Positions 8,642 through 26,385 of a DNA stretch of 64,000 bases are shown in pieces. The stretch lies in contig CAWHKQ010000015.1 of NCBI GenBank assembly GCA_963829925.1, forward strand, positions 182,073 through 246,072. The letters are read 5' to 3'. Under the pieces are notes generated by a model. That model was not told where the DNA came from, ran no database searches, and saw only the letters and a list, made by a program, of their open reading frames with translations. The stretch is from an uncultured Acidobacteriota bacterium. Its GTDB lineage: Bacteria > Acidobacteriota > Thermoanaerobaculia > UBA5066 > Gp7-AA6. Made by a program: the position numbers and the translations under genes. The first letter of the stretch is position 1, and every line of letters starts with the position of its first letter.

Positions 8642-10492
8642 CCCCGCCCCGCCTGCGGCTGTCCGACGTGCTTCTCCTCTTTGCCGCCTGCCTGCTGAGC
8701 TACGCCAACGCCCTGCCCGGCGGCTTCACGTACGACGACAAGGCGATCGTGCGGGACAACCCGAGGATCCGGGCGCCGGACAGGATCGACGAGGTCTTCA
8801 CGACGCAGTACTTCGGCGGGGAACGCGGCACCGGGACCGCGTACCGGCCCGTGCTCCTGCTGTCCTATGCCGCGCAATGGTGGATCCATGGCGGGGAACC
8901 GGCCGCCTTCCATGCCGTGAACGTGCTTGTGCACGTCGCTGCGACGCTGTTGTTCGCCCGCCTTCTGCTGCACACTCGGCATCGCGCCGCCGGCCGCTCT
9001 CGCCTCGGCCCTCCTCTTTGCCGTGCATCCCATCCACGTCGAGGCCGTGACGAGCATCGTCGGGCGGGGCGAGACGCAGGCCGCCGCGCTGACTCTGGGC
9101 TACCTGCTCCTCGGCCTGCGTGACGCCGACCGACGCGGGAGACGGTGGCTGGCCCTGTCGATGGCGCTCCTCCTCTACGGGCTCGCGGTCCTGACCAAGG
9201 AGAGCGCCGCGGTGGCGCCGGCCCTTCTGCTTCTCTGTCTGGTCTGGCTCGCCGACGGCGGGCTCGGACGGCGGCTGCTCGACGCCCTCCGCCGCGGCCT
9301 CCCGCTGTATGCGGGATCCGCGGTCATCCTGCTCGGCGTTCTCCGTGTGCGGACCTGGGTTCTCGGCGGCCCGCTGAAGTCCGCGGACTCGGGGATCTTC
9401 CAGCTCGAGAACCCGCTGGCGAGACTGCCGCCGCTTATCCGGGCGGCGAACGCCGGCGTCCTGTTCTTCATCTCCCTGGGGCGCCTGGCGTTTCCGCTCC
9501 GCCTGTCCTCGGACGAGTCGGCCTGGGCGATCCGGCCGCTCGGTCCGCGCAACGTCCTGTTCTGGCTGGCCCCGCTGCTTCTCGCCGCGCTGGGCGCCGC
9601 GGCGCTCCGGGGGCTGCGATTCCGGGCGCCGGCGGCGCTCGGCTTTCTCTTCCTGGCGGTGGCCTCGCTGCCCGCGTCGAACCTCCTCTTTCCGACGGGG
9701 ACCATTTTCGCGGAGAGGCTCGCGTATCTTCCGTCGGCGGGGTTTTGTCTCGTCGCGGGATCCTGGATCCTCGGGCAGACGAAAACCGGTGATGGCCCCG
9801 GACGCGCCCGGCTCCTGCTCCTGTCCGCGGTGGTGGTCCTTCTCGCCGCCCGGACGGTGGTCCGAAACGCGGTCTGGGCCAGCGACGAGACTCTCTTCAC
9901 CAACATGGTCCGCGTCTCGCCCGAAAGCGCCAAGGCGCACTACGACTTCGCGTACATGTCGGCGACGGAGGGCAGAAAGCGCGCCGCGCTGGAGTCCTAC
10001 ACGCGCGCCACGCAGATCTACCCCCGGTATTGGGACGCCTGGGCGGGGCGGGGCCGGATGGAGCGCGATCTCGGAAACCTCGCGGCCTCGGAGGCGTCCT
10101 ACGCCGAGGCTGTGCGGATCGCGCCCTTCTACGAGAACGGATACTTCGGGCTCGGTCTGGCGCGGGAAGGCCGCGGCGACCGCGCCGGCGCCGAGGAGGC
10201 GTACCGGGAGGGTCTGAGGCAAAAGCCGAGGTCTCTGCCTCTCGCCTTCCGGATGGCCGAGCTCCTGACGGCCGAGCGCCGTCCGGCGGCCGGGCACGCC
10301 TGGCACCGCGCTCTGACCATCGACCCGAACTCCGCGGCGACGCGCATCGGCTACGCGCGCTGGCTGGCCGCGGTGGGCCGCCGGGACGAGGCCCTGCGGG
10401 AAGCGCGGGACATCCTGAGGCGGACCCCGCGTTTCGCTCCCGCGCGAGAGCTCGAGACCCGGCTCCTCAGTGGATCCGCTCCCGCGAACTGA
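8638..10492 (+). CDS. Integral membrane protein with C-terminal TPR repeats, TMTC/DUF1736-like (GT39-related glycosyltransferase-like); frameshift near 8990
   Basis: GTG start overlapping the sdaAA stop (GTGA). N-terminal ...YANALPGGFTYDDKAIVRDNPRIR...AYRPVLLLSYAAQWW is the TMTC-family signature. Multiple TM segments follow, then TPR-like repeats (YTRATQIYPRYWDAWAGRG..., AEAVRIAPFYENGYFGLGLA...). Confidence 0.6.
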
Positions 10493-11082
10493 CCTGGTCT
10501 TCGCGGGCCCTCCGGATGGCGGCGCGGTCCCGCCGCCGCGCGGCGCGGGCCGCGACGCGCGGATAGCGCCGGTGGTAGAGCCTGAGGATCGCCAGGGTCA
10601 GCCAGTACGCGGCAAACGCGAGGACCACAGCCAGCAGCGTGGTCCCCACGAGAAACGAAGCCAGGCGCGGCCCGAAACCGGGCCCGCGGAACGCGACCCA
10701 GAAGTCCTGGTTGAGGATCCGCTGCCACTTCAGGGCCGGGACCGCCGCCGGCGCGTATCCGAGCAGCGCCCGGCCCACCCGGTATCCGACCGCGAAGAAC
10801 GGCGGAAGAGTCCAGGGATTCCCGATCAGCGATCCCAGGACCGTATCGAGCTTGTTCAGACGGAAGAGGAGGGCGAGAGCGATTGCCAGGAGAAAGTGAA
10901 AGCCGATGAAGGGCGAGAGCCCCACGCCCACGCCGACGGCGACGGCCGCCGCCACGCGTTCCGGCGTCTGCGCGCGACCCATGAGGTCGAGCAGGAGCTT
11001 GAGCCTCCGCCGGCGCCAGGAGGGACGGCGTCTGGCGGCCGAGGGCGTCCCCTCCGAGCTCCTGGCCGGGGGCGTGCTCATC
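10467..11082 (-). CDS. DUF2062-family membrane protein
   Basis: MSTPPARS...[49 protein letters not shown], the DUF2062 core. Its ATG overlaps the thiL stop (ATGA). Confidence 0.6.
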
Positions 11083-12087
11083 GGGCGGCCTCGAGATGGT
11101 CGTGTCCGAGCTCCGCGACGTCGCGCTCGCCGGCGCGACCGCGCAGGACGGCGCCGCTGCCGGCCTCGATCCCGCCGATGTGCGTGACCGGGATACCGAG
11201 CTCTGCCGCAAGCGCGAGGAGCCGCCCGTCCGCCGCCTCCGGGACCGTGAAGAGCAGCTCGTAGTCGTCCCCTCCGGAGATGGCCAGCTCCACCGGGTCG
11301 ATCGCTTCCACGACTCCGAAGGATACGAGAGCCGGGGAGATCGGGAGGCGGTCTTCTTCGAGCACGACGCGCGCCCCGGAGGCGCGGGCCAGCCGCCCGG
11401 CGTCGAGCCCCAGGCCGTCGGAGACATCGATGGCGGCGCTGGCCAGCCCGTGCCGGGCCAGGGCGAGGCCCAGGGCGATGCGCGGGACCGGATCGCGGTA
11501 AGCGTCGAGAAGCCGTTTCCGGTGCTCGGAGGACAGCCCGGGCGGGCGCGGGTCTCGCTCGTCCTCTCCGGCCGCGAGTCTTTTCGCCACGCGAAGGCCG
11601 GCGGCGGCGTCTCCCAGGTATCCGGAAACGTAAACGCGGTCGCCGGGCGAGGCGCCGCCGCGAGTCAGAGGCTCGCCCGGGAGCCGTCCCCATGCGGCGA
11701 CCGACACCAGCCTCGCCGGAGCCGCCGACAGGTCCCCTCCGGCCAGGTGCGCCCCGAACTCGGCGGCCCGCGCGATCGCCCCGCGCGCGACGGCGAGCGG
11801 GAAGTCCTCCCGCTCGGTTCCCGGAAAGCCGATCGTGAGGAGGAAGAGCTCCGGTTGGGCGCCCATCGCGGCCAGATCCGAGAGGTTCACCGCGACGGCG
11901 CGGCGCCCCAGCCGCTCCGGGTCCTCGCCCGGAAGGAAGTCGACGCCCTCGACGAGCACGTCGGTCGTGACGGCGAGCAGCCCGGAGGCCCATTCCACGA
12001 TCGCCGCGTCGTCGCCCGGGCCGAGGCGGATCCCGGGAGCGGGGGGGAGCAGCGCGCGGAGTTTCTCGACGAACCGGTCTTCCGGCT

Positions 12088-12092
<5 letters not shown>
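11078..12092 (-). CDS. thiL: Thiamine-monophosphate kinase
   Basis: [16 protein letters not shown]...[11 protein letters not shown]...[14 protein letters not shown]...[16 protein letters not shown]...[14 protein letters not shown]...[13 protein letters not shown], canonical ThiL (AIR-synthase-like fold). The GTG start overlaps the lon stop. Confidence 0.75.
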
Positions 12093-14577
<2,485 letters not shown>

Positions 14578-14592
14578 GGTTCTGAGCCTACT

Positions 14593-15060
14593 CCTCCAGC
14601 TCCGCCGCGACCGGTATCTCGATCTCCTTCTCTCGCAGGTCGGGCACCCGCGGGAGGAGGATCTCGAGAAGGCCGTTCTTCAGTTTGGTCTTCGCCAGGT
14701 GCGAATTGACCGGGCGCGGCAGCGGGATCGACTTCACGAAGGCGCCGAAGTAGCGCTCCATGCAGAAAAAACGCATGCCTTCCCGGGCGCGGATCCGTCC
14801 CTTCTTGGTCCCGCGGATCATCGCCATGCGGCCGCGGATCGTGCACGCGGACGTCGCCGGCCTCGACGCCCGGCAGCTCGACGAGGATCTGGATCGACTC
14901 CCCGTCGTCCACGACGTCCACGTTGGGGTCCCAGGAGGACGCCGGCGTCCCGCCCTTGTTGTTCGACTCGACGAAGACGGCGAAGAGCCGGTTGAGCTCG
15001 CTCTGCAGACGCGAGAGCTCCACCATCGGACCGTAGAACCGGGCCGTGCGTCTCACCATG
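14593..15060 (-). CDS. Small heat-shock protein, Hsp20/alpha-crystallin family; frameshifted near 14830-14870
   Basis: N-terminal MVRRTARFYGPMVELSRLQSELNRLF...WDPNVDVVDDGESIQILVELPGVEAGDVRV. C-terminal EGMRFFCMERYFGAFVKSIPLPRPVNSHLAKTKLKNGLLEILLPRV. Confidence 0.7.
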
Positions 15061-15121
15061 GGATCGCTCGGCTCGGCGTCGGCTCGATAAGTCGGGATCC
15101 CTCGGCCTGCGGCCTCGGGAT

Positions 15122-15149
15122 GACTTCGTGGGGCTCGCCTCACGAAGTC
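15122..15149. promoter_or_regulatory. Perfect 9-bp inverted repeat (GACTTCGTG-N10-CACGAAGTC) overlapping the nrdR stop codon, upstream of hsp20-lon
   Basis: Read directly from the sequence. The stem-loop has no T-tract. It could be a transcript-end hairpin or an HAIR/CIRCE-style heat-shock operator. Confidence 0.3.
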
Positions 15150-15610
15150 ACCTTCTCGCCGCGTCCGATCAGGTTCTTCAGCTCGTGCAGGAACTCGTCG
15201 ACGTCCTCGAACTTGCGATAGACGGAGGCGAAGCGCACGTAGGCGACCTTGTCGAGCTCGCGCAGCCGCTCCATGACGAGGGCGCCGATCCGCGAGGTGG
15301 CGATCTCCCGCTCCTCGGCGTCGTGGAGAAGGGACTCGATCGCGTCGACCACCCGGTCGAGCTCGACGGGCGGCACCGGGCGCTTCTCGCAGGCCTTGAC
15401 GAGCCCGGTTCGCAGCTTGTTCCGGTCGAAACGCTCCCGCCGGCCGTCGTTCTTGACGACCATGTAGGGAATCTCCTCGATCGTCTCGTAGGAGGTGAAG
15501 CGCCGGCCGCAGCCCGTGCACTCCCGCCGCCGGCGGATGACCTCGCCTTCCCGGCTCTCCCGGGAGTCGACGACCCGGTCGTCCCCGGCCGCGCAGAAGG
15601 GGCATTTCAT
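15140..15610 (-). CDS. nrdR: Transcriptional repressor NrdR
   Basis: Intact 156 aa. MKCPFCAAGDDRVVDSRESREGEVIRRRRECTGCGRRFTSYE zinc ribbon plus ATP-cone. Confidence 0.85.
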   Translation of the reverse strand: MKCPFCAAGDDRVVDSRESREGEVIRRRRECTGCGRRFTSYETIEEIPYMVVKNDGRRERFDRNKLRTGLVKACEKRPVPPVELDRVVDAIESLLHDAEEREIATSRIGALVMERLRELDKVAYVRFASVYRKFEDVDEFLHELKNLIGRGEKVTS

Positions 15611-15648
15611 CGAACCTCCAGCTTACCCGAGAACGGCCGGATTCCCGA

Positions 15649-16691
15649 CTATCGGCTCCCGATTTCCGGCTCCGCCGCCAGGTCCTCGAGGCGCTTTTTG
15701 CGCAGCGGGCTCGTGGCGAAGAGCGCGAATCCGATGAGCGAGATCGGGACGAACGACACCGCGTGCGCGAGCAGGGCCACGCCCGTCGCCGTGGCCACCG
15801 GGACGGCGAAGACGTCGGTCAGGGCGAACTGCACGGCCGCGTGGTATCCGCCCACACCGCCGGGCGTGGGGACGGCGAGGCCCAGGACCGCGGCGGTCGT
15901 CACCACATAGGCGGCCGTCAGGGGCAGGTCGAGGTCGAAGGCGCGCATCACGCAGTAGATCTGGACGTTGATCACCAGCCACATGCCGACGGAGCCCGCC
16001 GACACGAGCAGGAGGAGTCGAGGCGTCCTCAGCGACGCGAACCCGTCGAGGAACGTGCTCGAGATTTTCCGTGCGATGTCTCGGAAGCGCTCGGGAAAGA
16101 CGCGAAAGAGGCTGCTCGAGGACCTTTTCGGTCATCTGCCGCCAGACGACCGCGAAGAGCGCGACCGCGATGGCTCCCGCCGCGATCGCCGCCACGACCC
16201 ATCGGGTCCGGTCCGAGGCCATGATCCCGCGTCGTGCCGGACCCCGAGGCCAGCGCGATCCCGAGAAAAAGAAGCTGCGCCAGCGCATCGAGGACCCGCT
16301 CGAAGACGATCGAGGCGAGGAGCGCCGCAAAGGGCAGCCCCCGCTCGCGGGCCAGGATCGCCGGCCGCAGCACCTCCCCGGCGCGCGCCGGCAGGACCGT
16401 GTTCGCGGCGAAGCCGATCGCGGTGGCGCGGAAAGCCGGCACGAACGGGACGCGGCCGACGGGCTCCAGGATCCAGATCCAGCGGACGGCCCGGAGCACG
16501 AACACGAACAGCGAGAGAACAACGCTCGCCGCGAGCCATCCCGGCGAGACATCGGCCAGCCGCCGGCCGATCTCGGCGAGCGGAACGCGGGACAGGAAGA
16601 ACGCCAGGAGTCCGATCGCGAGCACGATCGAGGCGACGGCCTGGAAACGGCGCGAACGAAACAGGGAGCGAGACGAGGTGACCGGCGTCAC
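15649..16691 (-). CDS. UPF0104 / lysylphosphatidylglycerol-synthase-TM-like flippase-like membrane protein; frameshifted near 16010-16030 and near 16230
   Basis: MTPVTSSRSLFRSRRFQAVASIVLAIGLLAFFL...LRAVRWIWIL...FRATAIGFAANTVLPARAGEVLRPAIL and C-terminal ...AAVLGLAVPTPGGVGGYHAAVQFAL... match the LPG_synthase_TM/UPF0104 family. Confidence 0.6.
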
Positions 16692-16797
16692 CGGCGCTCA
16701 GGCGCCGCGGCCAGGGCTCGAGGAGACGGAGACTCCCCTCGAATCAACCTCGTTTGTGCGAATCTCACGCATGGGTTTTAGCATTCGCAGCGTGCGT

Positions 16798-16818
16798 TTG
16801 CCTAAGAAAATGAGGCAA
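16798..16818. promoter_or_regulatory. Imperfect palindrome TTGCCTaAGAAAATGAGGCAA, a candidate operator upstream of the repeat-protein promoter
   Basis: 7/8 matching arms. It lies in a ~40% GC island between divergent genes. Confidence 0.3.
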
Positions 16819-16833
16819 AGCCCCGATAACACT

Positions 16834-16862
16834 TGACTTTCCAGCGTATTTTTCACATTCTT
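16834..16862 (+). promoter_or_regulatory. Putative sigma-70-type promoter (TTGACT -35, 17-nt spacer, weak -10 CATTCT) followed by RBS GGGAGG (16875-16880)
   Basis: A -35 hexamer with 5/6 consensus match. AT-rich context unusual for this genome. Strong SD 8 nt before the ATG at 16889. Confidence 0.4.
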
Positions 16863-16888
16863 TTCTTAAATTTTCGGGAGGAACACGC

Positions 16889-18577
16889 ATGGCAAGGAAG
16901 GCGCCCCGGCTTCTGGCGCTTCTGGTCTCGTCGGTGTGGTTTCTGGCAGGCCGCGCCGGAGCGCAGCCCATCGGTGGCCTCGACTTCCCCGGCGAAGGTC
17001 AGACGGTCACAGGGATCGTCCGGGTCTCCGGCTTCGTGCTCGACTTCAATAACATCGATCGGGTCGAAGTGCTGGTCGACGGCATCCTCGTCAACCGGGC
17101 CGACATGAATCTGCCCCGCCCCGACGTCCTCGAGATCTTCCCCAACTACGTCAACAGCGCCACTCCGAATCCCGGGTTTCTCTCCGCGTTCCTGGCGCGC
17201 GGCGTCTTCAGCGACGGTCCGCACGCGGTCTCGATCCGCGTCACCGAGTCGGCCAGCCAGCAGCAGTTCACGATCGCCACCCGCAACGTGATCGTGGACA
17301 GCTCGCTCAACCAGGCGCCCTTCGGCTACATCGACATTCCCCACGCGTCCGGCCTGGAAGGCGCCAACGGCTCGTTCCCGGTGTCGGGCTGGGCCGTCGA
17401 CGACGTCGACATCGACCACATCGACTTCCTGGTCGACGGCCAGATCGTGGCCGGCGCCGTCGGCCGAGGCGAGCCCGGCACGGCGGTCTACGGCACCACG
17501 CGCCCGGACGTCGCGGCGGCGTTTCCGGACCTGCCGCTGGCGCTCTACTCGGGATTCTCCGCGAACATCAACACGACACAGTTCATCAACGGACTGCACG
17601 TCCTGTCGGTCCGCGCGACCGACAGCGAAGGGGCGTCCCGGGACCTCGGGAGCCGCACCGTCCAGATCGTCAACAACGGCGCCAATCTCGCGCCGTTCGG
17701 GCGCATCGACTACCCGCTGGACAAGGCCTCGCTGTTCTGCTCGACGATCGGCGGGGGCATTCCGTCTCCCTGCACCCCCGACATCTGCGGCGACATCCTG
17801 ACGAACGTCGTGGCCGGCTGGACGCTGGACGTGGGCTCCGCGCTCGACCAAGGCCAGGTGTCGTACGTCGAGCTCCTGCTCGACGGCGCGATCATCGCCA
17901 ACACCCGGACCGATTGCGTGCAGCTCGGGCAGGCCCTGACCAACTGTTACGGCATCAACCGCCCCGACGTGGCGCGCAGCTACTCGGGTTACGTCAACGC
18001 CGACAACGCGGGGTTCCTCTTCAATTTCGCGCTCGTTCGCGACGCCGATGAATCCTCCGGCCAGATCTTCATCCTGCTTCCGACCAGCCGCTTCGGCGAG
18101 TTCATCCTGGCCGGTGTCACGACCCCCGGCAAGCACACCATCGCGATCCGGGTGGGCGACGAGGAAGAGACGGTCGCCCAGATCGCCGCCATGTCGGTCG
18201 ACATCCTGTGCGACCAGCAGTTCGGCGATCAGCCGGCGTTCGGATACATCGACACGCCCACCGACTACCAGTTCATCAACGGCGTTTTCGAGGTGTTCGG
18301 CTGGGCGTCCGACTTCCAGCAGGTGCACAGTGTCGAGGTCGACGTCGACGGCCACGTCGTGGGCACCGCGTTCTACGGGCTTCTCCGGCCCGACGTGCGC
18401 GCGGTCGATCCGCGGGTCTTCTCGCCCAACGTCGGGTTCTCGTTCCTGCTCGACACGACGCACCTGTCCGATTCGCCGCACGATCTCGTGATCTACGTGA
18501 TCGACCGGTTCGGCAACCGCAGCGAGATCGGGCGCCGCAAGTTCGTCGTCAACAACAACGTCTCCACACATAACTAG
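16889..18577 (+). CDS. Secreted protein of unknown function built from four tandem ~130-aa repeats (signal peptide plus 4 modules); intact 562 aa
   Basis: Signal peptide MARKAPRLLALLVSSVWFLAGRAGA. The repeats start near residues 28, 150, 278 and 450 and share these features: PFGYID-P near the start; a G-x-F/V-x-V-x-GWA segment; an I/V-D-x-V-E/D-F/V-L-V/L-DG-x-x-V-G segment; and the motif YG-x-x-RPDV. The third repeat carries a Cys-rich insertion. GC is visibly lower than in the neighbours. A clean rho-independent terminator follows. Confidence 0.8.
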   Translation: MARKAPRLLALLVSSVWFLAGRAGAQPIGGLDFPGEGQTVTGIVRVSGFVLDFNNIDRVEVLVDGILVNRADMNLPRPDVLEIFPNYVNSATPNPGFLSAFLARGVFSDGPHAVSIRVTESASQQQFTIATRNVIVDSSLNQAPFGYIDIPHASGLEGANGSFPVSGWAVDDVDIDHIDFLVDGQIVAGAVGRGEPGTAVYGTTRPDVAAAFPDLPLALYSGFSANINTTQFINGLHVLSVRATDSEGASRDLGSRTVQIVNNGANLAPFGRIDYPLDKASLFCSTIGGGIPSPCTPDICGDILTNVVAGWTLDVGSALDQGQVSYVELLLDGAIIANTRTDCVQLGQALTNCYGINRPDVARSYSGYVNADNAGFLFNFALVRDADESSGQIFILLPTSRFGEFILAGVTTPGKHTIAIRVGDEEETVAQIAAMSVDILCDQQFGDQPAFGYIDTPTDYQFINGVFEVFGWASDFQQVHSVEVDVDGHVVGTAFYGLLRPDVRAVDPRVFSPNVGFSFLLDTTHLSDSPHDLVIYVIDRFGNRSEIGRRKFVVNNNVSTHN

Positions 18578-18607
18578 GACGACCCGGGGGTCGCCCCGAG
18601 AAACCAT

Positions 18608-18636
18608 CGCCCCGCCGTGAGGCGGGGCGTTTTGTT
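18608..18636 (+). terminator. Rho-independent terminator (cgccccgcc-GTGA-ggcggggcg-TTTTG)
   Basis: 9-bp GC stem, 4-nt loop, T-tract, immediately after the 16889..18577 stop. Confidence 0.75.
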
Positions 18637-18677
18637 GTCCGTCGCTTCCGCTCGTTCGGGACCTGCGGCCTTCGGCC

Positions 18678-18800
18678 GCACCGGCGAGCGGCTCGCCCGG
18701 ATGCGGGCTCGACCGCTCGCCTGGTCCCTCGCTCGCTCTCGCTCCCGCAGCGCGAGGCTCCTCCCTTCGGGAGACTCCTCGCGCTGCGAACGAAGTCCGC
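18678..18800. repeat. Copy C of the GC-rich intergenic repeat, same orientation as the left arm at 2698-2812
   Basis: gcaccggcgagcggctcgcccggatgcgggctcgaccgctcgcctggtccctcgctcgctctcgctcccgcagcgcgaggctcctcccttcgggagactcctcgcgctgcg aligns at ~80% with 2698-2812. Confidence 0.6.
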
Positions 18801-18830
18801 AGCGCGGCTAAGATATTCTTCGATGCCGGC

Positions 18831-20116
18831 GTGACCCCAGAAGACAACGAGCTGCTGACGCGGGTGGGACCGGGCACGCTCATGGGCGATCTGCTGCGGC
18901 AATACTGGCTGCCATTGATGCTCTCGGACGAGCTCGGTGCGCCGGACGGGGCGCCGCGGCGGATGCGGCTGCTCGGCGAGGATCTGGTCGCCTTCCGCGA
19001 TTCGGGGGGGCGCGCGGGTCTTCTGGCGGAGGCGTGCCCGCACCGTCGGGCCTCGCTCTTCTTCGGGCGCAACGAGGAGGGCGGGCTGCGCTGCGTTTAC
19101 CACGGCTGGAAGTTCGACGTGGCGGGGCGCTGCCTCGAGCTTCCGTCCGAGCCGTCCGACAGCCGGCTGCGGGAAGGGGTCCGGGCACGCGCGTACTCCC
19201 TGTCGGGAGCTCAACGGGGTCGTCTGGGCCTACCTGGGGCCCGCGGAGGAGGCTCCGCCCCTGCCCGAGCTCGGTTGGGCTCTGGCGCCGCTCGAGCGGC
19301 GGTCGGCGCGGACGTACGCGCGCGCCTGCAACTGGCTCCAGGCGCTGGAGGGCGATGTCGACACCGTGCATCTGGGCTGGCTGCACGCGCGCCTCGGGCC
19401 GGCCGGCGCGCGTGAGGTGGCTTTCCACGAGGGGGATCGCCTCCGCGACATTGCGGTGCGGGACCGGCGCCCCGTCCTCCAGGTCGTCGATACGCCGGCC
19501 GGACTGAGCATCGGAGCCCGGCGCGACGACGGGGGCGGCGAGCACTACTGGCGTATCTCGCAGTTCCTGATGCCGATCTTCACGAGCGTGCCGGCGATCG
19601 GGCAGCAGCGCCGGGCGAAGGCCTGGGTTCCTCTCGACGACACGCACACCCTCGTGTGGGAGGCCAACTGGTACCCGACCGAAGAGCTCGCGGCCGGGAA
19701 GGACGCGACAGGGGAGCGTCGGACGCCGGAAGAGCGGGATGCTGCCCGATACGGAGGACCCGCTCGAGCGCGGGCGATTCGCGGCGAACTCCGAGAACGA
19801 CTATCGGATCGACCGGGAGCGCCAGCGCACCTCGAATTTCAGCGGGATCGAGGACTCGCCTCCCCTCCAGGACGCGGCCGTCCAGGAGAGCATGGGCCCG
19901 ATCGTCGACCGCTCCGGCGAGCACCTGGTCGCTTCGGACGAAGGCGTCATCCGCGTGCGCCGGCGTCTGCTGGACGCGGCCCGCCGTCTCCGCGACGTTG
20001 GCGAGGAGCCTCCCGGTGTCCGCGCTCCGAGCGCCTACCGATTACGCGGCTGCCAGATGATCCTGCCCCCAGGCGCCGACTGGCAGGAGGCGACCAGGGA
20101 AGAGCAGACGACCTGA
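18831..20116 (+). CDS. Rieske [2Fe-2S] non-heme-iron oxygenase, alpha-subunit-like (VanA/KshA/phthalate-dioxygenase class); frameshifted near 19210 and near 19740
   Basis: MTPEDNELLTRVGPGTLMGDLLRQYWLP. Rieske ligands CPHRRASL...CVYHGWKF. Catalytic-domain motifs NWLQALEGDVDTVHLGWLH and ...HYWRISQFLMPIFTS.... The C-terminus is in the ORF 19739..20116. Confidence 0.7.
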
Positions 20117-20149
20117 GATCCTGCCGCCAAGCGGCTATTTCAGCGGCCC

Positions 20150-20270
20150 TCATCAGCTCGCGGCGGGGGAGCGCTCTCCCGGAGGAGCCGGCCGCGGGAG
20201 CCGAGCGGCGAGGGATCAGGCGAACGGTCGAGCGCGCACCCGCGCGAGCCGTTCAGTGCGCCGCGCCGCA
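20150..20270. repeat. Copy D of the GC-rich intergenic repeat, same orientation as the right arm at 2886-3006 (inverted relative to copy C)
   Basis: cgcggcgggggagcgctctcccggaggagccggccgcgggagccgagcggcgagggatcaggcgaacggtcgagcgcgc aligns with 2886-2998. The outer end (...ggtcgagcgcgcacccgcgcgagccgttcagtgc) is the reverse-complement match of the outer end of copy C. Confidence 0.55.
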
Positions 20271-20292
20271 GTCCGAGCGAGCGGAGGCGACG

Positions 20293-21942
<1,650 letters not shown>

Positions 21943-22017
21943 TCTGGCACGCCGGTCGCCGAAAGTCTCCCCGGACCCCGGAGGGCGGCGTAAAATCGCC
22001 CTGCGAGGGGACAGAAC

Positions 22018-22326
22018 ATGTTTGGCTCCATCGGAATGCCCGAATTGATCCTGATCTTCGTCGTGGCGCTTCTGGTCTTCGGACCCAAGAAGTTGCCCGA
22101 GCTCGGAAAGTCGCTGGGGCGCGGGCTGGCCGAGTTCAAGAGGGCCTCCGACGACCTGAAGAAGACCATCGAGGACGAGATCGAGCAGGGCAAGCGCGAA
22201 GCCGAGGCCGTCAAGAGGCAGGTCTCGGAAGCCGGAAGCTCGCTCGCGGGCGCCGCCGGAATCGAGACGCCGCGCGCCCCCGAGGCCACCGTCCCGAGAG
22301 CCGAATCGCCGATCCGTCCCACTTGA
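22018..22326 (+). CDS. tatA: Twin-arginine translocase subunit TatA/TatB family
   Basis: MFGSIGMPELILIFVVALLVFGPKKLPELGKSLGRGLAEFKRA, the canonical TatA/E N-terminus. Confidence 0.85.
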   Translation: MFGSIGMPELILIFVVALLVFGPKKLPELGKSLGRGLAEFKRASDDLKKTIEDEIEQGKREAEAVKRQVSEAGSSLAGAAGIETPRAPEATVPRAESPIRPT

Positions 22327-23138
22327 GCCGCTTCAACCCGCGCGACCTCGTCGACGGCCCGGGCGCCCGGCCGCCCGCCGGCGACGAGGAAGAGCTGGCG
22401 CGGATGGGCTTCTTCCAGCATCTCGACGATCTGCGCAAGCGGCTCATCGCCTCGATCGCCGCCATCTTCATCGGGTTTCTGCTGTCCTGGGCGTGGGCGC
22501 AGGAGATCTTCGACTTTCTCGCCCGGCCGCTGCGCGACGTGCTTCCCCCCGGAGAGAACCTGGCCTACACGACCCTCACCGAGCCCTTCATGATGTATTT
22601 CCGGGTGGCCCTGCTCGCCGGGATCCTGATCTCCTCGCCGGTCGTCCTCTGGCAGGTCTGGCTGTTCATCTCGCCGGCCCTGTACCGCCGCGAGAAACGC
22701 TGGGTCTGGCCCTTCGTGACGTTCGGGGCTCTCTTTTTCCTGGCGGGTTGCGCCTTCTCGTACTACGTCGCCTTCCCGCTCGTCGTGAGGTTCCTGGTCG
22801 ACGTCGGCAAGCCGTTCGAGGCCGTCATCACGATCAACGAGTACCTGTCGGTCGCGACGAAGCTGATCCTGGCCCTGGGCCTGTGCTTCGAGATGCCGAT
22901 CCTCATCTTCTTCCTGGCCCGGATGGGGATCGTCTCGGAGCGGTGGCTTCTCAAGAAGTTCAAGTACGCCATCCTCATCATCTTCATCCTGTCCGCCGTG
23001 ATCACGCCCTCGGCCGACGTTGCGACGCAGTGCGTCTTCGCCGTGCCGATGATCCTGCTGTACCTGCTGGGGATCCTGGCGGCCTGGCTGTTCCGGAAGC
23101 GCGAGACTCCGGCGGAGATCCAGCAGCCGGAGGTCTAG
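22323..23138 (+). CDS. tatC: Twin-arginine translocase subunit TatC
   Basis: Intact 271 aa. HLDDLRKRLI...six TM segments...FFLARMGIV. The start overlaps the tatA stop. Confidence 0.9.
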   Translation: MSRFNPRDLVDGPGARPPAGDEEELARMGFFQHLDDLRKRLIASIAAIFIGFLLSWAWAQEIFDFLARPLRDVLPPGENLAYTTLTEPFMMYFRVALLAGILISSPVVLWQVWLFISPALYRREKRWVWPFVTFGALFFLAGCAFSYYVAFPLVVRFLVDVGKPFEAVITINEYLSVATKLILALGLCFEMPILIFFLARMGIVSERWLLKKFKYAILIIFILSAVITPSADVATQCVFAVPMILLYLLGILAAWLFRKRETPAEIQQPEV

Positions 23139-23612
23139 CGGCTCCTCGCGTTTCTCCTCAGGATCAGCTCGATGAGCTCGCGGACGGCCCCGTGTCCGCC
23201 GGGACTCTTGAGGACGATGGTCGCGGCCCGGCGCGCGGCCGGAACGGCGTCGGCGGGGCAGGCGGACAGCCCGGTCGCTTCGAACATCGGGATATCGGGC
23301 TCGTCGTCGCCGATGGAGGCCATCTCGGAGCGCTGGAGCTTGAGCCTGCGGCGCACCGCTTCGAGCCGGGCGCCCTTGTCTCGAACGCCCTGGTAGCAGT
23401 AGGGGACGCCGAGCTCCCTTCGCCCGGCGCGCGGTCGCGGGCGAGCTCCGGCCCGAGATCCAGCACAGCGTGATCCCGGCGGCCGCCGCCTTGCGCATGC
23501 CGTGACCGTCTTTCGTGTTGAAGACTTTCAACTCGTGGCCGCGGCCGTCCAGGTAGATCTGGCCGTCGGTCAGCACGCCGTCGACGTCGAGGAAGAGCGC
23601 GCGGATCGTCAA
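23135..23612 (-). CDS. kdsC: 3-deoxy-D-manno-octulosonate 8-phosphate phosphatase (HAD); frameshifted near 23400-23470
   Basis: N-terminal MTIRALFLDVDGVLTDGQIYLDGRGHELKVFNTKDGHGM. The C-terminal piece IGDDEPDIPMF...GGHGAVRELIELIL is in the ORF 23135..23356. The ATG overlaps the kdsD stop (ATGA). Confidence 0.65.
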
Positions 23613-24565
23613 CCGAAGCCCGCCGAGAGCAGGTCGTGCATGTGCAGCGCGCCCGACAGGCGCCCGTCGCCGTCGAGGATGAAGAGCGACGTGATCCGGT
23701 GCTTCCGCATGGTTTCCAGGGCGGTCGCGGCGAATTCCTCGGCGCCGATCGTGCGGGGATCCGGCCGGCAGCAGTCGCCCGCCGCTCTCCCGAGCTCACC
23801 CGCGTCGTTCTCGAGCAGGCGCCGGAGATCGCCGTCCGAGATGACGCCGAGGAGGCGGTCCGCGCCGTCGACGACGGCCGTGATCCCCATCATCTTCCGG
23901 GACATCTCGTGAATCGCGGCCGGCATGGGCGTGTCGGGCGCGACCCGTGGAACCCGGTCGCCCGTGCGCATCAGGTCCCGGACCTTGAGGAACCGCCGGC
24001 CGAGGGTGCCCCCCGGATGGAGCGCGGCGAAGTCTTCCTCCTGAAAGCCCCGCCGCTCCGAGATCGAAAGGGCGAGGGCGTCTCCCATGGCGAGCATCGC
24101 CGTCGTCGAGGCGGTCGGAGCCAGGTTCAGAGGGCAGGCCTCGCGCGGAATCGCGAGGGAGATCGCGATCTCGGCCGCCCGCCCGGCGGAGGACGCCGGA
24201 TCGCCCGTCATGACGATCGTCCGGATTTTCCGGGACCGCGCGAACTCCAGCAGGCGGACGACCTCGGGCGTCTCTCCCGAGGTGGAGAGCGCGAGGACGA
24301 CGTCGCCCGGCATCAGCATGCCGAGGTTCCCGTGGCTGGCCTCCCCGGCGTGCAGAAAGTAGGCGGGGGTCCCCGTGGAGGCCAGGGTGGCGGCGATCTT
24401 CTGGCCGATCAGGCCCGATTTCCCGATACCGGTCACGCAGAGGCGTCCGGCCGTGGACTGGATCGCGTCGATGGCCTCCAGGAACGGCGGCCCGAGGTTG
24501 TCGATCTGCCGCCGAACGGAGTCCGCCTCGACCTCCAGAACCTTTCGGGCTGTCTCGAGATTCAC
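23609..24565 (-). CDS. kdsD: Arabinose-5-phosphate isomerase (SIS + 2xCBS), KdsD/GutQ family
   Basis: Intact 318 aa. SIS domain GRLCVTGIGKSGLIGQKIAATLASTGTPAYFLH...VVLALSTSGET. Tandem CBS domains at the C-terminus. Confidence 0.85.
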   Translation of the reverse strand: MNLETARKVLEVEADSVRRQIDNLGPPFLEAIDAIQSTAGRLCVTGIGKSGLIGQKIAATLASTGTPAYFLHAGEASHGNLGMLMPGDVVLALSTSGETPEVVRLLEFARSRKIRTIVMTGDPASSAGRAAEIAISLAIPREACPLNLAPTASTTAMLAMGDALALSISERRGFQEEDFAALHPGGTLGRRFLKVRDLMRTGDRVPRVAPDTPMPAAIHEMSRKMMGITAVVDGADRLLGVISDGDLRRLLENDAGELGRAAGDCCRPDPRTIGAEEFAATALETMRKHRITSLFILDGDGRLSGALHMHDLLSAGFG

Positions 24566-24738
24566 GCCCGTATCTTACCGGGCCGACGTCCGACCGCGGA
24601 CCGCCTGCCGTTCCGGCGAACCGTGGGGAGCCACGAGCTCGAGCGGCTGCGGATCTCTGTCACTTTCTCGACTTTCTGCCCCGTGACCGGGCGGGCAGTG
24701 GCTGTTCGGGCGTCGAACTTGCAGCGCATCAGCGCACG

Positions 24739-26385
24739 ATGACCCCGAGGGAGCAGGAAGAGGCGATGCGGGTTTTTCGGGACGACTTCGTCCGCAGCTC
24801 TCTGCACCGGCTCGCCGACATGGAGACTCTGGTCGACCGTCTCGAGAAAGCACCCGCCGACCTCGAATCGGTCAGAGCCCTTCTCGGCCACTTTCATGGC
24901 CTGTCGGGCGCGGGGGGGACCTACGGGTTTCCGGGCGTGACGACTCTGGGACAGGACGGAGAGGCTTCCTGCCGGGGCGTCCTGTCGGGCGCCGGATCGT
25001 CGGTTCCCGCCGACGTCGTCTTTTGGTCGAACCTCGTCGCCAATCTCCGGAGCGAGCTGTCCTCCGACCCGTCGCCGGAAGTCTCCGTCGTGTCCCGCGT
25101 GTTGGCGGCCCGGCCTCCGATGGACCTGCTCCTGGTGGGGGGCGAGGAGGAGGATCGAGACCTCCTGACGCAACTGGCTCAGCGGGACGGGATGGCCCTG
25201 CGTTGGGCGAGATCGGCGGAAGAGGCCACTCGGGAGCTGGCTCGCCGGATTCCGGAAGGCGCGATCGTGAACGTCGATCTGCCCGACGGCAATGGCTTCG
25301 GGGTCGTCGAGCGCCTGAGGGGGCTGCCGGGAGGCGAGACTCCCGCCGTTCTGATCCTGAGTGGCATCGGGGAGTTCGCGGATCGCGTGGACGCGATCCA
25401 TTGCGGAGCGGACGGGTTCTTCATGAGACCTCTGGACGGCGAGGCCCTGATGCGCCGCCTGGAATTTCTCTTCCATCGCGCCCGCGTCGAAACGCCGCGC
25501 GTCCTGTCGGTCGAAGACGACCCGCATCAGGCGAATTTCCTGACCGCCGTGCTGGAGTCCGCGGGCTACGAAGTCCGGATCTGCAGCGAACCCGAGAGCT
25601 TTTTCGCGGACATCGCCGCCTTTCGCCCCGACCTGGTCTTGATGGACATTCAGCTTCCCGGAGCCAGCGGCTACGACCTGGTCCGTTCCCTTCGCCAGGA
25701 GGAGACCCAGGCGATGCTGCCGGTCGTCTTTCTGACGACGCAGGCCGAGCCGGGGTCACGCATCGAGGCGGCCAGGGCCGGCGGCGACGATCACATGGTC
25801 AAACCCGTCTCCCCGGGCCTTCTGCTCTCGACGGTGGCCTCACGGATCGAACGCGCGCGGTTCCTCCGAAGCCTCGTCGAAAGGGACGGATTGACGCGGC
25901 TGCTGTCGCACACGGCCTTTCTCGAGCGCGCCAGGGTTGCCGTCGCCCGGCAGGAACGGCACCCGGACTGGAAATGCGCCTTCGTCATGCTCGACATCGA
26001 TCGCTTCAAGGCGGTGAACGACTTGTATGGCCATCCGGCGGGAGACCGCGTCCTGGCGACGCTGGCGGCACTTCTTCGCCGCAGGTTGCGTCTGACCGAC
26101 ACGATCGGCCGGATGGGCGGCGAGGAGTTCGCGATCCTGCTCGAGGAGTTCAGCGAGGAGCAGGCCCTGCGTCTGATGCAGCGGCTCCTGCAGGAATTCT
26201 CGGCCATTCCCCACGCGGGTCCGGACGGCCAGACCTTTCGGGTGACGTTTTCCGGCGGCGTGGCGATGCTTCTGGCTCCGAGGTCCGACCTGAAGTCGTG
26301 GCATCAGGCCGCGGACGAGGCCCTCTACGCCGCCAAGACCGAGGGGCGCAGCCGGATCGTGGTCGGGTCCAGGGTCGCCGGGTGA
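24739..26385 (+). CDS. Hybrid signalling protein: Hpt-like N-terminus, two receiver domains and a GGDEF diguanylate cyclase
   Basis: Intact 548 aa. Receiver motifs (LLLVGGEEEDRD..., VLSVEDDPHQANFL...LVLMDIQLPGASGYD). GGDEF core RMGGEEFAILLEE with the RxxD I-site region. Confidence 0.85.
   Translation: MTPREQEEAMRVFRDDFVRSSLHRLADMETLVDRLEKAPADLESVRALLGHFHGLSGAGGTYGFPGVTTLGQDGEASCRGVLSGAGSSVPADVVFWSNLVANLRSELSSDPSPEVSVVSRVLAARPPMDLLLVGGEEEDRDLLTQLAQRDGMALRWARSAEEATRELARRIPEGAIVNVDLPDGNGFGVVERLRGLPGGETPAVLILSGIGEFADRVDAIHCGADGFFMRPLDGEALMRRLEFLFHRARVETPRVLSVEDDPHQANFLTAVLESAGYEVRICSEPESFFADIAAFRPDLVLMDIQLPGASGYDLVRSLRQEETQAMLPVVFLTTQAEPGSRIEAARAGGDDHMVKPVSPGLLLSTVASRIERARFLRSLVERDGLTRLLSHTAFLERARVAVARQERHPDWKCAFVMLDIDRFKAVNDLYGHPAGDRVLATLAALLRRRLRLTDTIGRMGGEEFAILLEEFSEEQALRLMQRLLQEFSAIPHAGPDGQTFRVTFSGGVAMLLAPRSDLKSWHQAADEALYAAKTEGRSRIVVGSRVAG

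Follow-up and report, generated by a model that had tools for sequence, protein, structure and literature searches.

An old, vertically inherited gene of Thermoanaerobaculia encodes a predicted exported protein of four Big_7 modules

The gene at 16889-18577 of this 64,000-nucleotide stretch of acidobacterial DNA (the window) encodes a protein with four tandem modules from a known family of Ig-like domains, Big_7 (Pfam PF17957). We read the product as Sec-exported, non-catalytic and vertically inherited, and as a likely structural or ligand-binding protein of the envelope or cell surface; we put the probability of this reading at roughly 60%. Since Big_7 is a known family and the gene was inherited vertically, the gene is largely ordinary. 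Its one notable feature is the promoter region, which is conserved in 68 of 68 species.

Modules, family and fold

The gene and the parts of its product are:

16889-18577, plus strand: CDS, an intact open reading frame of 562 amino acids (stop codon included)
16889-16963, plus strand: predicted Sec-type signal peptide, residues 1-25, with cleavage between AGA and QP (from sequence features)
16964-17311, plus strand: Module 1, Big_7 Ig-like, residues 26-141 (22.2 bits against Big_7 when searched alone; BLASTP against Module 4, E = 2e-14)
17312-17689, plus strand: Module 2, Big_7 Ig-like, residues 142-267 (20.4 bits alone)
17690-18223, plus strand: Module 3, elaborated and Big_7-like, residues 268-445, with a Cys-rich N-terminal insertion and a second insertion at about 376-412
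18224-18574, plus strand: Module 4, Big_7 Ig-like, residues 446-562 (19.6 bits alone; BLASTP against Module 2, E = 5e-18)

As the original prediction had it, the reading frame is unbroken. An identical protein is on record (P0001, 496-kb contig). The computed mature protein has 537 amino acids, a mass of 57.4 kDa and a pI of 4.39, and it is poor in lysine. An acidic pI and low lysine are common among extracytoplasmic surface proteins. The N-terminus (MARKAPRLLALLVSSVWFLAGRAGA followed by QPIG) has the basic n-region, hydrophobic core and A-x-A site expected from the Sec signal peptide that had been proposed. This shape is conserved in orthologs (pattern M.rk....lal...a..a.aqp), and AlphaFold2 (AF2) places a low-confidence helix at residues 6-22. 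Because the N-terminus lacks a twin arginine, we rejected a Tat signal, and because there is no cysteine near the cleavage site (no lipobox), we rejected a lipoprotein. Judging by the features of the signal peptide and by six conserved cysteines, the product is exported via Sec.

Pfam finds only Big_7 in the whole protein, NCBIfam finds nothing significant, and neither search finds a catalytic or anchor domain. (An OmpL47-type match in NCBIfam was rejected as sub-threshold, at 16 bits against a cutoff of 40.) The protein also has no recognisable anchor among those we looked for (lipobox, SLH, PEP-CTERM, T9SS CTD or LPXTG).

The four modules are about 115-180 amino acids each and together span residues 26-562. 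They are homologous, as had been claimed: BLASTP between modules gives E values from 5e-18 (Modules 2 and 4) to 8e-5 (Modules 1 and 2), at 25-35% identity. The motifs quoted in the original prediction turn out to be invariant columns of the module (G5, D8, P10, G20, G26, D30, D42, G43, R64, P65, D66, V67, G81, F82 and H96). Module 2 is the best conserved, with a mean column conservation of 0.79-0.84. Module 3 has no Pfam match when searched alone. It is homologous to Modules 1, 2 and 4 (BLASTP E = 4e-7, 4e-8 and 5e-5), 49 of its positions are at least 97% invariant among 56 species orthologs, and the AF2 model has extra strands at residues 375-411. The third module was also correctly described as Cys-rich, as all six cysteines of the protein lie in it (C284, C295, C300, C343, C353 and C441). 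Conservation of each among 120 orthologs is 83-100%. Of 56 species orthologs, 47 have six cysteines, neither more nor fewer, and these probably form disulfides.

The module had been called an unrecognised domain, which it is not. The Big_7 HMM matches the full-length protein in three stretches, with 50.2 bits (E = 4e-13) against a gathering cutoff of 24.1. Single modules fall just under the cutoff (22.2, 20.4 and 19.6 bits), and their matches span just profile positions 5-47 or so of 70. A profile built from Modules 1, 2 and 4 matches 13,025 representative proteins, most of which carry the module in tandem; the matches span positions 2-112 of the profile. All 50 of the distant relatives that we sampled from this search (best E = 2e-72) match Big_7. 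Four single modules from relatives exceed the Big_7 cutoff on their own (27.8-45.8 bits), and three of these reach the end of the Big_7 profile (positions 68-70 of 70). Among the 50 relatives, partner domains include Peptidase_S8 (7/50), Glucosaminidase (6/50) and SH3_3 (2/50). Score, homology across the whole module and fold agree, and the repeat belongs to Big_7. We therefore set aside a novel domain, as the repeat is a member of a named Big family whose distribution is ordinary.

The earlier guess of an Ig-like beta-sandwich held up. An AF2 model of Module 2 alone has a pLDDT of 91.9 and a pTM of 0.84, and Foldseek matches it to E-set and Ig-like domains: the X1 modules of CbhA (3PDD and 3PE9), the E-set domain of sulfite oxidase, CelAly B1 and the N-domain of ChiA, with E from 1e-5 to 1e-3. 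As modelled, the module is an Ig-like or E-set sandwich, and the RPDV motif forms a short helix after the fifth and sixth strands. For the full four-module model, Foldseek returns only generic multi-Ig, FN3 and macroglobulin (MG) proteins with TM scores of 0.12-0.26; at the level of the model, these matches confirm a series of sandwiches but say nothing more specific. When the full-length sequence was searched against the PDB, nothing meaningful came up (6GKV, E = 2.4), and a search of BFVD found only generic phage Ig-like domains.

The closest known proteins are tandem Big_7 proteins annotated as "Ig-like domain-containing protein," such as those from Ectobacillus sp. JY-23 (WP_281503686.1) and Sporolactobacillus sp. 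CQH2019 (WP_274398778.1). They share the same module of about 110 amino acids (including G-W, V-D-G, Y-G-x-x-R-P-D-V, G-F and H), are secreted, carry arrays of 4-12 copies and score above the Pfam cutoff. In contrast, the protein studied here has a fixed number of four modules, no enzyme or other domain and an enlarged, Cys-rich third module. It is found at a fixed locus and only in Thermoanaerobaculia, and it is about 30% identical to the Bacillota proteins. This RPDV-type module has the invariant pattern D…W…D-G…R-P-D-V…G-F…H in about 13,000 representative sequences.

Among specific structural matches to a single module, the best is X1 of Clostridium thermocellum CbhA ("fibronectin-III-like"; Foldseek E = 2e-5 to 7e-5 for 3PDD and 3PE9, target-normalised TM 0.66-0.71). 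It also matches the sequence profile of the module (E = 1e-3 to 1e-2), but only at the ends (profile positions 5-46 and 81-111). X1 has no counterpart of the central segment of about 34 residues that carries Y-G-x-x-R-P-D-V and the short helix, and X1 modules are parts of a cellulase, unlike the four-module protein.

Just one PDB-listed sequence aligns across RPDV, and the match is marginal (E = 0.04): the C-terminal domain of the Enterococcus faecium prophage amidase EfAmi1 (8C4D), which aligns as GiaRPDVkkay…GF…D. This domain has been proposed to bind cell-wall carbohydrate (PMC10167349). We rejected 8C4D as a solved relative of the RPDV segment, since the domain is missing from the crystal (PMC10167349) and so has no structure. 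EfAmi1 has a single such domain on a lytic enzyme, unlike the four-module protein. Finally, region II of the Marinomonas ice adhesin (4P99) and the Deinococcus HPI S-layer protein (8CKA) are, as here, extracytoplasmic strings of Ig-like sandwiches, and both are among the top Foldseek matches of the full-length model. The TM score is 0.14, so only the plan of repeated sandwiches is common. Our candidate is much shorter, lacks RTX/T1SS signals and shows no sign of Ca2+ sites or of a lattice.

Conserved locus and promoter region

We found orthologs in 79 species-level MAGs, all of them Thermoanaerobaculia/Acidobacteriota, at 45-88% identity. Ortholog length is fixed at about 560 amino acids (over 120 orthologs). 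In 74 of the 79 species loci, the gene is adjoined divergently by an operon of LPG_synthase_TM, NrdR, HSP20 and Lon, and synteny with S41 is kept in 55 of the 79. Synteny holds in more distant loci, down to 37-53% identity. In the same pairs of genomes, the gene is less conserved (68-73%) than NrdR and S41, so it is not under exceptional constraint. A 37%-identical paralogue (locus L006) adjoins an exosortase-family gene.

The elements around the gene are:

15623-16691, minus strand: gene for an LPG_synthase_TM (PF03706) membrane protein, the divergent neighbour; frameshifted in this assembly (Pfam 105.7 and 63.5 bits on two frame pieces)
16797-16819, plus strand: palindromic A-rich box, TTTGCCT-AAGAAAATG-AGGCAAA, starting 36 nt 5' of the -35-like hexamer
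16832-16840, plus strand: -35-like box CTTGACTTT, containing TTGACT (16833-16838)
16856-16861, plus strand: candidate -10 hexamer CATTCT, 17 nt after TTGACT, with A at position 2 and T at position 6 kept
16862-16888, plus strand: T-rich leader and Shine-Dalgarno sequence GGGAGGA (16876-16882), with the conserved consensus CTTAaaTTTTcGGG.gg
18608-18639, plus strand: intrinsic terminator, CGCCCCGCC-GTGA-GGCGGGGCG then TTTTGTTGTC

Much of this had been noticed in the original prediction and is borne out: an AT-rich island (44% GC at 16780-16888), the TTGACT hexamer, a palindrome (TTTGCCT-N9-AGGCAAA) and a strong Shine-Dalgarno sequence, which ends 6 nt before the ATG. Across orthologous upstream regions, these elements are conserved. 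The palindromic box has a consensus, GCCtAAAAAAATGAGGC, that is near-invariant over 68 species loci (AAAAATGAGG is present in 65/68), and it is found once in the window. It is a candidate operator or UP-like element. All 68 upstream regions carry the -35-like box CTTGACTTT at a distance of 53-60 nt from the start codon, and its information content is maximal. The block CATTCTTT is invariant in the 68 loci, and we infer that CATTCT is the -10 hexamer. The order GCCtAAAAAAATGAGGC, then CTTGACTTT, then CATTCT is common to all 68 species, and the window contains the combined pattern just once. GGAGG lies at most 17 nt from the start codon in 66/68 loci.

A simple scan for the sigma-70 consensus calls no promoter upstream of the gene; we assign the promoter because it is conserved across species, not because it matches a consensus. 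No Rfam family matches the leader and upstream region (16600-16950). We rejected the palindrome as a terminator of the upstream gene (a minus-strand match at 16824-16812): that gene runs in the opposite direction, away from the palindrome, and has just its 5' end here. Downstream of our gene, the clean terminator that had been claimed is present, with a hairpin at 18608-18629 (9 G-C pairs and a loop of 4) followed by TTTTGTTGT. The hairpin is part of the minimum free energy fold of 18575-18660 (-43.3 kcal/mol).

Possible roles

The gene would give a monocistronic transcript that runs between the class-wide conserved promoter region and the intrinsic terminator. Expression would be constitutive and probably strong, and the protein would probably be abundant. 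High expression is plausible given the strong conservation of the promoter, Shine-Dalgarno sequence and terminator, but the gene's codon bias is no higher than in its neighbours, and its ENC (effective number of codons) and GC3 are unremarkable. The protein may form a short, rigid chain of some four beta-sandwich domains and serve as a structural or ligand-binding part of the envelope or cell surface. Conserved faces of the modules (D8, W27, D42, R64-P65-D66 and H96, in module numbering) might bind an envelope polymer, a glycan or a metal ion, and they would bind rather than catalyse. In Bacillota, relatives carry this module on peptidoglycan hydrolases and subtilases, where it may tether or space enzymes at the wall. 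A search of the literature on this lineage turned up nothing relevant on Ig-like proteins or metaproteomes.

The protein might instead be a self-assembling, S-layer-like protein whose four Ig-like modules tile the outer cell face as a lattice. The strongly conserved promoter, strong Shine-Dalgarno sequence and strong terminator are consistent with this, as is a predicted secreted, acidic, single-copy protein made only of beta-sandwiches. The HPI S-layer (8CKA) matches the full model (Foldseek E = 1.7e-9, TM only 0.14), but that match is generic to any tandem Ig protein. Pfam and NCBIfam find no SLH or other known anchoring domain, and a size of 57 kDa and six cysteines would be atypical for S-layer proteins. 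We consider a lattice unlikely. A broader proposal, in which the extended RPDV-type module is a distinct glycan- or metal-binding subtype of Big_7 and the four-module protein is a major S-layer-like protein of Thermoanaerobaculia with a near-invariant promoter and operator-like box, seems quite unlikely.

Might the protein be a periplasmic partner of the divergent LPG_synthase_TM (flippase-like) protein, in the modification of lipids or glycolipids or in envelope biogenesis? The two genes are adjacent in 74/79 species, and down to 37% protein identity. LPG_synthase_TM is also the neighbour at loci L001, L003, L004, L007, L008 and L009, and other envelope genes are nearby (S41/Ctp peptidase, TatA, TatC, KdsC and KdsD in the window, and KdsA at L001 and L003). 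However, LPG_synthase_TM is the first gene of a string whose other members, NrdR, HSP20 and Lon, have unrelated functions, so simple inheritance of the gene order may explain the linkage. At L009, a Hist_deacetyl gene separates the two. We saw no co-occurrence outside the lineage, and the Bacillota relatives of the module pair with other enzymes. LPG_synthase_TM is a conserved neighbour, and its adjacency does not imply a functional partnership, which we think improbable.

Tandem Ig-like stalk domains, here four Big_7 modules, are also what a fibrillar-adhesin-like protein for attachment to particles, polymers or cells would have, and Big_7 has been counted as one of the Ig-like families found in surface proteins (PMC8877628). 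The Ca2+-stiffened extender of the ice adhesin (4P99) matches the full model (Foldseek E = 8e-13), and the paralogue next to the exosortase-family gene would fit as well. Against this, there are only four modules, with no adhesive domain at the tip, no anchor and no T1SS/RTX signals. Adhesins usually vary in copy number and have a patchy distribution, while here the length is fixed at about 560 amino acids in more than 120 orthologs, and the synteny is fixed too. An adhesin or matrix-binding protein is doubtful indeed.

We give still less weight to a secreted, CBM-like protein that captures polysaccharide substrates, which we consider very unlikely. The fold resembles the ChiA N-domain, CbhA X1 and CelAly B1, the conserved residues of the module include Trp, Asp, Arg and His, and some authors treat Big_7 in chitinases as a carbohydrate-binding domain, as an annotation rather than from a test (PMC8950537). 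But no Pfam CBM family matches at E up to 10, the conserved neighbourhood has no CAZyme or transporter, and the gene belongs to the syntenic core, not to a variable polysaccharide-utilisation locus.

Inheritance and significance

The original prediction described lower GC and codon usage than in the neighbours, and this was half right. The total GC of the gene is 66.1%, at the 5th percentile of windows of the same length; the window mean is 69.5%. Its GC3 of 0.911 is not lower than the local average (26 gene-like ORFs of the window give 0.868±0.035); its ENC is 33.1, within the range of intact neighbours (28.4-38.0). Low-GC codon usage is thus refuted. The original prediction had named two outcomes that would tell against it, a repeat from a well-characterised family and a GC3 that does not stand out, and essentially both are seen. 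The deficit sits in GC1 (0.64) and GC2 (0.43), and because GC3 is not reduced, the lower total GC comes from amino-acid composition.

Nor is the gene one of few long genes without a frameshift. S41 (549 amino acids), KdsD, TatC, AIRS and NrdR are intact too, while Lon, HSP20, LPG_synthase_TM and KdsC are frameshifted. We rejected the idea that the gene is intact because it has fewer homopolymers: G/C runs of at least 5 occur at 1.78 per kb in the gene and 1.61 per kb in the whole window.

Horizontal acquisition had also been suggested, and it does not agree with what we found. Within one lineage, 79 species genomes carry the gene in conserved synteny, and the gene's GC3 and ENC are typical. 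There is no tRNA within 10000-26000, and we noticed no mobility gene among the ORFs of 14000-22000. It does not look like a genomic islet, as its synonymous composition is typical, its distribution is not patchy and its neighbours are the same. A surface protein gene recently acquired on a low-GC islet, as the low total GC and the AT-rich upstream region might suggest, is almost certainly wrong, since GC3 is at or above the local mean, the location is the same across the 79 genomes and the AT-rich island, too, is conserved throughout the lineage. The gene is old, vertically inherited in Thermoanaerobaculia and single-copy, with a fixed chromosomal position, and it is a lineage-specific core gene.

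Overall, a new domain on a foreign island gives way to a predicted exported protein of tandem Big_7 modules, whose gene is a conserved marker for an uncultured class of Acidobacteriota. The Big_7 subtype that bears RPDV is very common and has no solved structure. To our knowledge, no promoter or operator architecture has been mapped experimentally in the Thermoanaerobaculia lineage, and the promoter region common to 68/68 species is a ready example of such architecture. If the protein is a major envelope or surface protein of Thermoanaerobaculia, as is possible, it could serve as an antigen or marker for enrichment, imaging and metaproteomics.

A secreted protein of four Big_7 repeats

The ORF at 16889-18577 (+) is intact, as originally predicted, and encodes 562 amino acids. 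Its N-terminus (MARKAPRLLALLVSSVWFLAGRAGA, followed by QPIG) looks like a Sec signal peptide, with a basic stretch, a hydrophobic stretch and an A-x-A site, and inspection of this sequence showed neither a lipobox cysteine nor a twin arginine. Four modules follow:

Residues 26-141: module 1
Residues 142-267: module 2
Residues 268-445: module 3
Residues 446-562: module 4

The modules are homologous by BLASTP (25-35% identity, from E = 5e-18 for modules 2 and 4 to E = 8e-5 for modules 1 and 2). The motifs quoted in the original prediction are the invariant columns of the module alignment: G5, D8, P10, G20, G26, D30, D42-G43, R64-P65-D66-V67 (RPDV), G81-F82 and H96. The third module had been described as carrying a Cys-rich insertion, and it holds all six cysteines of the protein. 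These are kept in orthologs, which is consistent with disulfides in an exported protein, and 49 positions of module 3 are at least 97% invariant. Of the 537 residues of the mature protein (pI 4.39), just 3 are Lys, 3 are Trp and 2 are Met.

The repeat had been thought to be an unrecognised domain, but the whole protein matches Pfam's Big_7 (PF17957, "Bacterial Ig domain") in three stretches, with 50.2 bits against a gathering score of 24.1 bits. Visual inspection easily misses this family because, taken alone, modules 1, 2 and 4 score just 19.6-22.2 bits and align with no more than the first two thirds of the model's 70 positions, and module 3 alone has no match in Pfam. An exhaustive search with a profile built from modules 1, 2 and 4 found 13,025 representative proteins at E ≤ 1e-3 (734 at E ≤ 1e-30). 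The matches run across the entire module of ~110 residues, and in the majority of the proteins, the module is repeated 4-12 times in tandem. Each of the 50 matches that we sampled is a Big_7 protein; partner domains in this set include Peptidase_S8 (7/50), Glucosaminidase (6/50), SH3_3 and other Ig-like families. Named relatives are from Bacillota and are annotated as "Ig-like domain-containing protein." Four single modules from relatives exceed the Pfam cutoff by themselves (27.8-45.8 bits), and for three of these, the match reaches the end of the Big_7 profile (68-70 of 70). In other words, this is a Big_7 Ig-like repeat protein, and its repeat has a very wide, ordinary distribution.

Structure prediction agrees with the earlier suggestion of an Ig-like β-sandwich. 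AlphaFold2 modeled the full protein (with 52 orthologs) as four all-β units, with a mean pLDDT of 77.9. With a diverse alignment of modules, module 2 was confidently predicted (pLDDT 91.9, pTM 0.84) to have nine strands plus a short helix beginning at RPDV. Foldseek matched this model to E-set/Ig-like sandwiches in the PDB (E = 1e-5 to 1e-3, TM 0.5-0.7): the C-terminal domain of sulfite dehydrogenase/oxidase, the X1 modules of C. thermocellum CbhA (3PDD/3PE9), the B1 domain of CelAly (9KVU), CopC, and the N-domain of chitinase A.

A profile search of PDB sequences also found the X1 modules, but they align to the module's ends only (profile positions 5-46 and 81-111), and the central ~34 residues with Y-G-x-x-R-P-D-V have no counterpart in them. 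The only PDB-listed sequence that aligned across the RPDV segment was the C-terminal domain of EfAmi1, an Enterococcus faecium prophage amidase/endolysin (8C4D, residues 259-312; a weak match, E = 0.04). This uncharacterised domain was lost from the crystal, and its authors inferred that it binds carbohydrate or the cell wall. Thus the fold class is already known, but neither search of the PDB found an experimental structure of the RPDV-bearing subtype.

A core gene of one lineage

The database contains over 120 full-length orthologs (66-100% identity, all ~560 aa). A scan of species-representative genomes found 79 loci (45-88% identity), all from MAGs of uncultured Thermoanaerobaculia/Acidobacteriota. 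In 74 of the 79, the gene adjoins a divergent LPG_synthase_TM gene, the first in a string with NrdR, HSP20 and Lon, and in 55 of the 79, an S41 peptidase gene follows downstream at a distance of no more than 2.5 kb. Loci that we inspected one by one have this arrangement as well, down to 37-53% protein identity. No tRNA was found near the gene. This single-lineage distribution, the shared synteny and the lack of a nearby tRNA contradict the proposed horizontal acquisition; instead, this is a lineage-specific core gene. When the same pairs of genomes are compared, conservation of the protein (68-73%) is below that of NrdR (81-92%) and S41 (73-86%), which is normal for an extracytoplasmic protein.

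Base composition does not point to a foreign origin either. The gene's total GC is indeed low (66.1% vs. 69.5% for the window, 5th percentile), but the deficit is at codon positions 1 and 2 (0.64 and 0.43) and comes from the protein's high content of D, N, I, F and V. GC3 is not lower than in local genes (0.911 vs. 0.868 ± 0.035 for 26 gene-like ORFs), and the effective number of codons is ordinary (33.1; 28-38 for intact neighbours). Codons ending in C make up a larger fraction (0.60) than in any other of the 13 genes compared (0.41-0.55).

The gene's intactness had been attributed to fewer G/C homopolymers, but runs of at least 5 are not rarer than in the window (1.78 vs. 1.61 per kb), so its intactness needs no special explanation. 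In this assembly, Lon, HSP20, LPG_synthase_TM and KdsC have changes of frame, while S41, KdsD, TatC, AIRS and NrdR do not. Relative to an orthologous locus (L001), the broken genes (window 12091-16691, 23138-23606 and 18831-20116) are spread over 3 frames for Lon and 2 each for HSP20, LPG_synthase_TM and KdsC; the downstream Rieske/LigXa-like oxygenase also seems to be split. The breaks look like indel errors in assembly or sequencing rather than pseudogenisation, since the pieces are still 74-91% identical to intact orthologs.

The slot between the gene and the S41 peptidase varies in content. It holds a Rieske + LigXa_C oxygenase here (18640-20290), a 52-aa ORF in L001 (9678-10559), a Glyoxalase_3 gene in L003 (9678-11044), nothing in L004 (9690-9767), and a TrkA-type channel in L007 (9888-12255), where TatC/TatA is inverted. 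Near the L007 locus, its MAG encodes a metalloprotease of the Reprolysin family that matches the SLH domain faintly (16051-17887), a sign that this lineage may use SLH-type anchoring to the wall. A distant four-module paralogue or orthologue (L006, 754-3059; 565 aa, 37% identity) is directly followed by a short Exosortase_EpsH-family gene, a possible sign that another lineage connects such proteins with exopolysaccharide or PEP-CTERM systems.

The conserved, putative promoter region

The gene's most distinctive feature is its promoter island. The AT-rich region upstream (16780-16888, 44% GC) and the other expression signals are all present as described:

16797-16819: palindrome TTTGCCT-N9-AGGCAAA, upstream of the gene
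16833-16838: TTGACT, upstream of the gene
6 nt 5' of the ATG: GGGAGGA
18608-18639: terminator hairpin of 9 G-C pairs, then a T-run

The ~90 nt that precede the start codon share a consensus among 68 different species: GCCtAAAAAAATGAGGC – ~16 nt – CTTGACTTT – 14 nt – CATTCTTTtCTTAaaTTTTcGGG.gg. All 68 species have CTTGACTTT, 65 have AAAAATGAGG, and 66 have GGAGG close to the start codon. Within the window, each upstream box occurs once. A consensus promoter scan of this region called no promoter, and Rfam had no matching family. TTGACT-N17-CATTCT is a candidate -35/-10 pair, and the A-rich palindrome, which would then be centered near -60, could serve as an operator or UP-like element. The gene is monocistronic, and the conservation upstream suggests that its expression is under tight constraint and probably strong. 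Codon bias does not independently support strong expression.

The non-coding DNA upstream (window 16770-16888; ~160 nt before the ortholog in species loci L010-L088) is more conserved than the protein. TTTTAGCAT (window 16776-16784) is conserved as well and may be part of the promoter from which the LPG_synthase_TM operon is divergently transcribed.

Possible roles

The protein is exported and non-catalytic. Its most likely role (probability roughly 60%) is that of an abundant envelope or surface component, either structural or ligand-binding. In this role, a conserved face would be displayed by each module, and module 3, enlarged and held by disulfides, would have a function specific to the lineage. 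More specifically, it might be an S-layer-like lattice protein, a partner of the neighbouring flippase-like protein (LPG_synthase_TM), an adhesin, or a polysaccharide-capture protein. No defining feature among those tested favours any of these four: searches of Pfam and NCBIfam domains found no anchor, tip domain or match to a CBM family, and no CAZyme neighbourhood was found at the individually inspected loci.

Overall, the sequence features in the original prediction largely stood, but its reading of them as a new domain, in a gene of low GC and possibly foreign origin, did not, because the repeat is a widely distributed Big family domain and GC3 is not lower. What remains of interest is the class-wide conserved promoter, with its operator-like box, and the structurally unsolved RPDV subtype of Big_7. 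If the match to EfAmi1 is real, then RPDV-type Big_7-like domains would also act as wall-binding domains of endolysins.
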